From: a virus
Taxonomy: Duplodnaviria > Caudoviricetes
Length of the DNA stretch: 48,391 nt
Virus record (IMG/VR): IMGVR_UViG_3300034127_000010
Span: 1-48,391 of that record
Direction: 5' to 3' (one strand)
In this document: one piece after another, positions 12,219-47,767 of the stretch
Layout: each line of letters begins with the position of its first letter
How positions within the stretch are numbered: position 1 is the stretch's first letter
Translations under genes and position numbers: made by a program
Notes under the pieces: generated by a model
Seen by the model: only the letters and a program-made list of their open reading frames with translations
What the model was told of the DNA's origin: nothing
Databases searched by the model: none

Positions 12219-12506
12219 ATGTTCTTGAAAGAGCCAGCGTGCGACGTGGGGTGCCGCGTCTGCCTCCTGTCCTGCGCCGTTAAGCCTGATCGGCTGGCTT
12301 GGTGGGAGCGGGAGGTGGAGCGCCTTTTGCGCGAGCGCGTTTCTTACCATCGGCCTGGCTGGCACGAGTGGCGGGAGCACCTGAAAGCCGCTCAACACGC
12401 ATGTGCAGAGCTGACGCGGCAGATCGAGGCCACTCGGAGTACGGGAGTTGGGCCGGCAGCTCTTGCTGCACATCTCTCAATAGGTCGGTCAGCACTTCTT
12501 CATTAG
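12219..12506 (+). CDS. Putative SOS-controlled antirepressor-like ORF, antisense to the cI 3' half
   Basis: N-terminal CxxxCxxCxxxC; purine-rich leader; SOS-like box upstream. Confidence 0.4.
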   Translation: MFLKEPACDVGCRVCLLSCAVKPDRLAWWEREVERLLRERVSYHRPGWHEWREHLKAAQHACAELTRQIEATRSTGVGPAALAAHLSIGRSALLH

Positions 12507-12738
12507 GCATCAGGGTCGGGGCCTCGCCGTCCTCGCTGAAGATATCCTGCACCCGGCACGCATACGCGCGTGCGATCGACGGCAAATTGCTACTCGGGAT
12601 ATTGGCCTTACCGTTCTCCCACCGGGACAGCATGCTCACCGAATAACCGATGCGTTCGGTCATCTGTTCGAGCGTGAGCCCGAGCCGTTCACGGAGCTGA
12701 GAGAGGTTGATTTGCACGGGCGGGACTTTGCACGACAC
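12280..12738 (-). CDS. cI: CI-like XRE HTH repressor without an S24 peptidase domain
   Basis: LRERLGLTLEQMTERIGYSVSMLSRWENGK; divergent from cro; GGAGGG RBS before the GTG at 12738. Confidence 0.85.
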   Translation of the reverse strand: MSCKVPPVQINLSQLRERLGLTLEQMTERIGYSVSMLSRWENGKANIPSSNLPSIARAYACRVQDIFSEDGEAPTLMPNEEVLTDLLRDVQQELPAQLPYSEWPRSAASALHMRVERLSGAPATRASQADGKKRARAKGAPPPAPTKPADQA

Positions 12739-12804
12739 GCAAACTCCCTCCAGAGCATGATATGCAAATCGGCGATTGACCTCGTGTTGCATATTGTGCA
12801 AATT
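12728..12804 (+). promoter_or_regulatory. OR operators and PR
   Basis: TTGCACGACACGCAA at 12728, GAGCATGATATGCAA at 12753 and TTGCATATTGTGCAA at 12787. TTGACC at 12776 has the same 5-nt offset to the operator as in PL. Confidence 0.8.
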
Positions 12805-12811
12805 GGCGATC

Positions 12812-13006
12812 ATGACCCTTTCCGATTATCTCAAGCAGCCGGGCAAGAGCGCCACTGACCTCGCCAACGAGGTGAAAGTCGCTGTGTCCACGATCACACG
12901 CGCCGCCAGGGGCGAGGTAGTGCCATCGCGAAAGCTGATGCACGACCTGTTCGAGGCGACAGGTGGGCAGGTCACGCCGAACGATTTCTTCGGAATCGCA
13001 GCATGA
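12812..13006 (+). CDS. cro: Cro-like HTH protein (probably leaderless)
   Basis: MTLSDYLK..SATDLA..STITR..GEVVPS...ATGGQVTPNDF. Confidence 0.88.
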   Translation: MTLSDYLKQPGKSATDLANEVKVAVSTITRAARGEVVPSRKLMHDLFEATGGQVTPNDFFGIAA

Positions 13007-45938: not shown

Positions 45939-46158
45939 GGTAGGTGCCGGTCTTTCCCGGCGGTCAGGCTTGGCTTCCCTCAACCCCGGCGGCCTGCATG
46001 GTCCGTGCTCGCTGAGTACTCACCAATGTCGTCTGCCCATGTCCAACGCCATGCACGCGCGCCGGACAACTCCGACTGGAAGAATCTACCCTTGGCCTCG
46101 GTCCCAGCACTGTACCTCGGGGTCGCGATGATCGCCGTCGCGGCAGGACCCTCCTACC
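45939..46158 (-). ncRNA. Putative multi-stem structured RNA (about 220 nt)
   Basis: At least six nested stems plus a UGACC-GCCGG-GAAAGA-CCGGC hairpin; no credible ORF. Confidence 0.6.
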
Positions 46159-46189
46159 AGAATCGCGCACTAAGCGCCATAAATACCGC

Positions 46190-46685: not shown

Positions 46686-46729
46686 CTCCAAATCCTACCA
46701 GAATCCGCCCTCAAAGGCGAGGGCTATCG

Positions 46730-46758
46730 TTGACGAAAGCGCAGGGTTGGGGTATGTG
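46730..46758 (+). promoter_or_regulatory. Sigma70-type promoter of the tRNA-like RNA
   Basis: TTGACG-17nt-TATGTG; predicted +1 at about 46765. Confidence 0.65.
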
Positions 46759-46764
46759 CTGGGG

Positions 46765-46896
46765 GCTGCGGCGGCGCTGAAGGAAGCGCGCGATTACGAC
46801 CTTGGGATACGTCACGCCCCGCCAAGGATATCCCATTGCGCAGCGGGGGAAGCGCAACCGATACCCCGCAGCCGGTATCAAGCCCGGCCCGCAGCA
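46765..46896 (+). ncRNA. tRNA-like RNA with an expanded, pseudoknotted anticodon domain (about 132 nt)
   Basis: 7-bp acceptor GCTGCGG/CCGCAGC+A, D-arm GCGC/GCGC, T-arm GCCGG-TATCAAGC-CCGGC and its own promoter. Confidence 0.72.
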
Positions 46897-47156
46897 TCAC
46901 CCCAACCACACCCGGCAAATAAGCCAAGCTACCCCATCGGCCAGCCCCTTGATCGCGCACGCGGCGAACAGGAGGGCTAGGAGAAGGGTTAGGAGCTTAC
47001 GGGCGGCGCGATGCATTGGCGAGCTCGGCACGGACAGCATTGCCCCACGACCACAATACGACGGTCAGCTCGTCGCGCGCTCTGCCTGGCGGAAATGCAC
47101 GCAGCCCCGTATGGATCAGCGCGCGGCCAAGTCTGAACCTCAACATCCGCACCATC

Positions 47157-47504: not shown

Positions 47505-47725
47505 GACGCCTCTCCCTCAACCACAGACCGCAGCGCAGCCAACTCCACCGCATAGTTCGGACCCTCGTAAGGGCCACATCGCAACTCCCGATGCAGGAAC
47601 GCGTCGTCGATTCCCGGCGCGCATTCGTCCAGCTTGGCGATCAGGGTGCTGGCTGCGGTCTCATAGATTTCGTCGATCGAGATTTGCATGATCGTGGTCC
47701 TTGTTGAAAGTGCTTCGACGCTCAC
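47501..47725 (-). CDS. Small hypothetical protein
   Basis: Starts at the GTG in R2. Confidence 0.6.
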   Translation of the reverse strand: MSVEALSTRTTIMQISIDEIYETAASTLIAKLDECAPGIDDAFLHRELRCGPYEGPNYAVELAALRSVVEGEAS

Positions 47726-47767
47726 CCCACCACCTGCGCATTCAGCCGGTCGGTGTCGGGGAGGGGG
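47719..47767. repeat. Gene-tail repeat R2 copy 2
   Basis: Identical to 920-968. Confidence 0.95.

Follow-up and report, generated by a model that had tools for sequence, protein, structure and literature searches.

A tRNA-top-half-shaped RNA predicted in a phage genome belongs to a widespread family with exchangeable inserts

Main finding

Positions 46765-46896 of the window, by which we mean the whole 48,391-nt stretch of viral DNA analysed here, are identified from sequence comparison as a 132-nt gene whose predicted RNA product takes the form of a tRNA top half. This RNA belongs to a widespread phage family in which a constant frame, resembling the acceptor, D and T arms of a tRNA, encloses an insert that varies in length and sequence from member to member. 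From the sequence alone, this site had been read as a promoter-driven tRNA mimic that cannot decode, and the comparisons described below support that proposal.

Anatomy of the predicted RNA

The gene lies on the + strand and begins with the 5' strand of an acceptor-like stem (46765-46771), which pairs with 46889-46895 and shows covariation. It is followed by a linker, C8-G9 (46772-46773), with C at the position of U8 in tRNA, and by a D-like arm (46774-46789) consisting of a 5-bp stem (46774-78/46785-89) with compensatory pairs and the loop GAAGGA, which contains the GG of a tRNA elbow. The cargo insert of 81 nt (46790-46870) ends at a near-invariant A46870 and leads into a T-like arm (46871-46888) with a 5-bp stem and the 8-nt loop TATCAAGC, in which a single base added behind the first U lengthens an otherwise tRNA-type T loop. 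The acceptor 3' strand and discriminator A46896 (46889-46896) follow, with CCA not encoded, and then a C-rich trailer (46897-46909), which starts like the trailer of the family member in Ssp-JY40 and resembles gene junctions of the opposite strand (R1 and R2, see below). The 7-bp acceptor, CG linker, discriminator A, T arm with 8-nt loop and insert hexamers named in the sequence-only reading are all present in the sequence. Its 4-bp D arm, however, has to be extended to 5 bp, with U46778-A46785 as a pair that is replaced by G-C in most members (41 UA and 200 GC, n=243).

Taken alone, the helices of the window RNA prove little, since the whole RNA folds no better than its shuffles (z -0.52), the insert by itself is likewise at chance level (z -0.57), and neither Rfam nor ARAGORN matched the window; the proof comes from the homologs. 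A protein-coding reading was rejected: the stop-free frame at 46724-46960 on the opposite strand had no Pfam match, and comparable stop-free frames were found in 163/243 members on the opposite strand and 162/243 on the sense strand.

Promoter and start

A predicted -35 element, TTGACG (46730-46735, + strand), and a predicted -10 element, TATGTG (46753-46758, + strand), are separated by 17 nt and would place the start of the RNA at G46765 or an adjacent base. Both coincide with peaks across the family, at -36/-35 (35/181 members) and at -12 (25/181 members), respectively. Words resembling the two elements at the spacing of the window were found in 42/241 members, compared with 0-4 in shifted controls, and the RNA begins with G in 37 of these 42; the promoter read earlier from the sequence is thus present, and its spacing recurs among family members. 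A consensus promoter scan of the window did not list TTGACG/TATGTG, the -10 element of which lacks the final T; such elements are common in Alphaproteobacteria. Other members lie a short distance before or after tRNA genes and further RNAs.

Extent of the family

Based on pattern searches, the 16-nt T hairpin matched an estimated 560 IMG/VR stretches and the D-arm pattern about 920, 120 stretches being taken from each, and a 20-nt T-arm pattern matched 117 stretches in GTDB genomes, many from Alpha- and Betaproteobacteria and others from Planctomycetota, Verrucomicrobiota and further groups. Parsing gave 243 distinct members (152 from IMG/VR, 88 from GTDB, 2 from phage records and the window). 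Cultured carriers include the Caulobacter phage DMCA, the Komagataeibacter phage phiKX1 and the Acidovorax phage AP1, with Ssp-JY40 carrying a variant form. The family RNA is an accessory element, and within one sphingomonad genus 2/151 genomes matched, one of them being the search centre. Two family copies were seen in one locus in L240, L298, L110 and L359, and the inserts differed where both copies were parsed.

When Rfam was run on 80 member loci, the frame was unmatched, and the two matches obtained were to tRNAs nested inside inserts. Because tRNA finders and Rfam miss the family, its genes stay unannotated. No published description of the family was found, and the exact frame motifs were absent from the literature searched, which extended to work other than the older T5 papers. 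The family RNA may sit among the 10,006 unnamed candidates of Fremin 2023 (PMC10690425), and the irregular tRNAs described in Mukai 2017 (PMC5389517) are of other kinds. The novelty claimed in the sequence-only reading holds as far as Rfam and ARAGORN are concerned, but is tempered by RNA2 of phage T5, which has the same design.

Conservation and covariation of the frame

Covariation among homologs, which had been suggested as a check on the structure, supported it. From 238 T-arm matches, we kept the 190 with an upstream D-arm motif and left out the 48 without it. All seven acceptor positions were paired in 154/182 distinct members (102 different acceptor 5' strands), compared with 2.9% when partners were swapped; acceptor pairing was not used in selecting these 182, the D arm being located by motif only. 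In a 60-row alignment, which leans towards the structure as it was built from parser-selected members, 99% of the cells pair and 12/17 pairs show double changes.

The constant frame of the 243 members starts with a 7-bp acceptor, the sequence of which is free, followed by C8-R9 and a 5-bp D-stem closed by the loop GAWGGA; its T arm has a 5-bp stem and a loop of 8 nt (235/243) or 9 nt (8/243). An A directly precedes the T-stem, as the last base of the insert, in 241/243 members, and the linker was CG or CA in 101/106 rows when the parse left it unconstrained. T-loop variants in a set anchored on the D arm (TTTCGAGT, TGTCGAAT and TACTCAAGC) correspond to tRNA T loops enlarged by one or two bases, and 7-nt T loops were found in only 2/102 rows of that set. 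Since the discriminator base is free, CCA is encoded in 8/243 members and G3.U70 occurs in 2/243, no single synthetase identity is kept.

Variability and exchange of the inserts

Insert lengths ranged from 41 to 208 nt, the minimum being 41 nt though the parser permitted 12, and the inserts fell into 219 clusters among the 243 members. They were slightly more folded than their shuffles (mean z -0.41, n=240) and were enriched in GNRA tetraloops (35/165 compared with 21/215 in shuffles). GGAGG was depleted in the inserts (18 observed, 46.9 expected) and occurred near expectation in the flanks (29 versus 31.6); this depletion and the GNRA enrichment point to selection acting on the inserts. A canonical T arm was present inside six inserts, and two inserts, judged by eye, resembled H-type pseudoknots.

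Closely related loci can carry unrelated inserts in the same frame. Specifically, among prophages, L176 shares an identical frame and 97-98% identical flanks with L108/L425, and yet the inserts (70 versus 51 nt) are unrelated; the same was seen at matching sites in L277/L280 and in Acetobacter loci. Unrelated inserts were found in 30/37 pairs sharing a homologous flank, these pairs not being independent of one another, and in 1/4 pairs homologous on both flanks, one of the four being a self-overlap.

Some cargo is conserved. One class, found blind in five members with different acceptors, keeps invariant single-stranded loops and covarying stems with compensating changes. Its complete motif was present in 8 of the 120 matches listed by a separate scan, and all eight lay inside the frame, four of them new. 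The loci of this class (L008, L055, L108, L240, L246, L425, L447, L465 and L480) show it only inside the frame. Elsewhere, a whole tRNA fold is nested in the frame (L087, 330-400; L120, 217-286; 46-47 bits with Rfam), followed in both loci by a similar short hairpin.

The insert of the window has no relative among the 243 members, the best candidate, L155, being a weak lead that equals the maximum of 60 shuffles. Its loop-E-like module was not enriched across the family (10/240 versus 8.4), and the matches obtained against 401 genomes were confined to short pieces of the frame or to chance. A single metagenome match was rejected as a chance match within a coding region. Among sequencing runs, none from RNA was listed as containing the sequence, and the single DNA run, from which the window may have come, showed no variant. 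The orthologous site of the window gene was not found, as the flanking proteins had no viral relatives.

Fold of the window insert

The insert had been described as a pseudoknotted domain in which two hairpins kiss. The hexamers exist, but a competing helix, 46843-48/46864-69, is favoured with a pair probability of about 1.0, together with 46800-05/46822-27 or 46803-09/46829-35 as alternatives. As this helix occupies GCGGGG, it removes the second hairpin and its kissing partner. The two-hairpin form was calculated at -47.5 kcal/mol compared with -54.0 and -57.8 kcal/mol, that is, 6-10 kcal/mol worse before the kiss, and the gain from a kissing duplex, if ideal, is limited to -11.6 kcal/mol before penalties. 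A kissing pseudoknot is therefore possible but unsupported by this modelling. Nor can it define the family, since the insert is the variable part and that of the window has no homolog.

Genome context

The window phage carries terminase, portal, capsid and endolysin genes and a CI/Cro-like HTH pair (12280-13006). A terminal repeat (1-95/48297-48391) suggests a complete circular 48-kb genome, though the record is classed as linear. Neither a tyrosine integrase nor a serine integrase/resolvase was found in the window, which makes prophage expression of the RNA uncertain. The operon opposite the RNA had been thought to be controlled by an RHH protein; no RHH protein exceeded the cut-off in the window, and the HTH pair was found instead. 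The family gene lies beyond the lysis genes and faces the end of the leftward early genes.

Across the family no fixed partner gene was found, the largest neighbour cluster covering 11/165 loci (1,347 crudely called ORFs). The gene is intergenic and moron-like in both DMCA, where it lies between a transposase and an integrase gene, and Ssp-JY40, where it directly follows the terminase gene; both genomes carry integrase and repressor-type genes.

Several other elements were observed in the window. Perfect repeats at 96-135 and 1173-1212 (R1, 40 nt) and at 920-968 and 47719-47767 (R2, 49 nt) lie at gene junctions of the leftward operon and are likely recombination points for gene shuffling. A 31-nt imperfect direct repeat (45265-45295/45500-45530) marks the end of a spanin-like gene and the region after the next ORF. 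On the minus strand, 45946-45966 forms the hairpin module TGAC-C-GCCGG-GAAAGA-CCGGC, a widespread separate phage motif present in about 800 IMG/VR stretches, often beside tRNAs or in tandem, and with no Rfam match; a longer RNA of the minus strand, with its start near 46160, may end in this module. The earlier suggestion of a two-RNA system, taking this module as the second RNA, was not supported, because the two RNAs mostly occur apart: 2/80 module loci also held a family RNA. The module was found near family members in 9 loci/517 kb (one self-match removed), compared with 6/1,577 kb in distant flanks, and the two share RNA-rich islands rather than form a system.

Other RNAs were seen beside some members. 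In Acetobacter loci L244, L278, L279, L311, L333 and L349, a promoter and the family RNA are followed by variable arrays of tRNAs and RNA modules, and in L279 additional modules are bounded by a short repeat. A permuted tmRNA (L083, 1057-1359), an abiF RNA (L025, 1444-1479), a DUF3800-IX RNA (L119, 342-412) and a hammerhead-like match (L109, 61-132) were also present, the last scoring below the gathering score.

Possible functions

Frame covariation, hypervariable and swapped inserts, recurrent promoter spacing and the lack of a fixed partner gene are observed. On this basis we tentatively favour, at a little under an even chance, a model in which the tRNA-shaped frame is trimmed by the host and stabilises an exchangeable payload, most likely a decoy that binds a host protein; expression, processing, payload function and the link to defence are what we infer in it. 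A sigma70-type promoter would start the RNA at or next to G1, and in promoterless members RNase P would cut the RNA from longer transcripts by recognising the 7+5-bp arm and the D/T elbow. The D-TpsiC interaction guides bacterial RNase P cleavage, and acceptor/T-stem mimics are tolerated (PMC4919922, section 5.1). Trimming of the 3' end would then yield a nuclease-resistant RNA. As it lacks an anticodon arm and its acceptor identity is not fixed, this RNA would neither decode nor carry any one given amino acid. Recombination between the two conserved arms, D and T, would replace one payload by another, and payload diversity may mirror a multitude of targeted proteins, for example factors of defence or superinfection. 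The suggestion of a scaffold, made among others in the sequence-only reading, is supported by these findings. Against the model, a start at G1 would make RNase P unnecessary in the promoter class, and, as the inserts are only weakly more folded than shuffles and most have no relative, their variability may also stem from neutral drift inside a functional frame.

A bolder form of the carrier model, which we regard as a doubtful though serious possibility, is a natural RNA cassette system in temperate phages. Here the tRNA-derived frame, altered so as to escape translation, would be a chassis for hundreds of interchangeable effectors, swapped by recombination between the D and T arms, which neutralise host defences or rival phages. 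The effectors could be aptamers, pseudoknots and nested tRNA mimics, with T5 RNA2 as a frozen example. If payloads are effectors, they would represent a large reservoir of uncatalogued functions for phage RNA, and the engineered tRNA scaffold would have a counterpart in nature. With hundreds of natural variants, the family already sets a constant frame apart from a payload that is swapped, and since it is carried by cultured phages of laboratory hosts (Caulobacter DMCA and Komagataeibacter phiKX1), its function is directly testable by exchanging frame or payload.

A plain carrier would have no need of the unusual T loop, C8 and 6-nt D loop, all strictly retained, which suggests that the frame itself has a specific partner. 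In the main alternative, the frame would be the effector: acting as an uncleavable mimic of the tRNA elbow, it would titrate a defence or processing protein that binds tRNA, and the insert would be no more than a nearly neutral, bulky block. The departures from canonical tRNA are fixed in hosts that differ widely (the T loop has 8-9 nt in 243/243), 7-nt loops are rare in the set anchored on the D arm, and the inserts are only weakly folded, all of which would fit. We nevertheless consider this unlikely, as it does not account for conserved cargo classes with compensating stems, the depletion of Shine-Dalgarno-like words only inside the inserts, or clean cassette swaps.

The frame might instead act like a t-element, a processing signal at which RNase P and 3' nucleases would cut neighbouring RNAs from a polycistronic phage transcript. 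A canonical T-arm motif occurred at most 110 nt downstream in 13/243 rows, compared with 10/1239 control windows; tRNA, abiF and DUF3800-IX RNAs recognised by Rfam lie just downstream of some members and a permuted tmRNA just upstream, and the Acetobacter members head arrays of RNA modules. Most members, however, including that of the window, adjoin no recognised RNA, and the 41-nt floor and conserved cargo classes are left unexplained. We consider a role of this kind quite improbable.

We rate as very unlikely a processed antisense RNA resembling C4 or CI that would use its insert or trailer to bind ribosome-binding sites in the opposing operon by base pairing, such as those at R1/R2, a role also proposed from the sequence alone. 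The window RNA is transcribed against the leftward genes, and all seven copies of TCACCCC on the + strand lie in the leftward region, where the opposite strand reads like ribosome-binding sites or stop-start junctions. The best duplex of the trailer in the genome is indeed with both R2 copies (-20.9 kcal/mol), but shuffled trailers reached -16.4 to -22.5 kcal/mol, two of eight beating the trailer and three more coming within 0.7, and the trailer of Ssp-JY40, which starts alike, has no outstanding target. Trailers matched their own locus over at least 12 nt in 16/111 cases, compared with 32/880; leaders, however, showed the same excess (13/111), and 11 of the 16 trailer matches were on the same strand, as expected of local repeats (L298 was left out of the trailer and leader counts). 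Inserts showed no excess of complementarity: among loci of 8 kb or more, with exact matches counted within 10 kb (a scope of long, local targets, apart from short or host-mRNA ones), a match of at least 14 nt was found in 1/114, a tandem copy, compared with 16/904 swapped comparisons. In addition, the C4 model RF01695 did not match the family RNA.

Finally, a circularly permuted, self-cleaving twister or twister-sister ribozyme with the insert as a dispensable stem is extremely improbable: the T hairpin and overall topology resemble those ribozymes, but no Rfam ribozyme matched the frame in the window or in the 80 member loci, the loop ends and D-stem ends of the would-be pseudoknot vary independently, and the loop variants read as tRNA T loops.

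Comparison with known RNAs

The family shares with canonical tRNA (RF00005) the 7+5-bp acceptor/T arm. Its members were nevertheless rejected as canonical tRNAs, having 8-9-nt T loops instead of 7 and C8 instead of U8; a hairpin resembling an anticodon arm was found at the start of the insert in 2/243 members and was absent from that of the window. The tRNA-like domain of tmRNA likewise consists of a tRNA top half around a large insert, but the family has a real D-stem and rarely has G3.U70 (2/243) or CCA (8/243), and Ala-Ala-stop, as in a tmRNA-type tag, occurred in 7 inserts with 5.7 expected, giving no excess. In the engineered tRNA scaffold, a cargo RNA takes the place of the anticodon end and the tRNA shape provides processing and stability; this laboratory tool keeps the anticodon stem and canonical loops, whereas the insert ends of the family pair less than those of shuffles.

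Among small phage RNAs, P4 CI RNA is matured from a precursor by RNase P. The C4 antisense RNA of P1/P7 (RF01695) is also matured from a precursor by RNase P (PMC4919922), but, as compared with these two RNAs, the family gave no RF01695 match and no complementary targets were found. T5 RNA1 and the T4 species 1 and 2 RNAs (rnaC and rnaD) are stable phage RNAs with no assigned function, and in T5 RNA1 and rnaC a T arm stands behind a large folded region. All three differ from the family in their D arm and were unmatched by the family model R1 (not to be confused with the repeat R1) at E up to 10.

The closest known relative in design is T5 RNA2 (NC_005859.1, 32959-33083), annotated as 'tRNA-like stable RNA with unknown functions'. 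Like the family, it has a 7-bp acceptor ending in G, a CG linker, a 5-bp D-stem, a D loop starting with GATGG, a long insert ending in A and the T-stem GCAGG, and Rfam did not match it. The family model aligned T5 RNA2 end to end and in register (20.1 bits, E 0.036, E-values being rough) and scored its homologs in T5-like phages at 20-30 bits, whereas tRNAs of T5 and T4, and those next to six members, were not listed by it. A pattern scan for intermediates between T5 RNA2 and the family gave only seven T5-like copies and two unrelated matches. In contrast to the family, with its T loop of 8-9 nt, its exchange of inserts and, in many members, a dedicated promoter, T5 RNA2 has a canonical T loop of 7 nt and a D loop of 8 nt. 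It is located in a lytic phage, within a cluster of tRNAs, and its insert stays the same (at least 80% of it is covered in 418 records). From these sequence comparisons, the family would appear to work like T5 RNA2 and may share descent with it, yet it forms a distinct variant of the same design.
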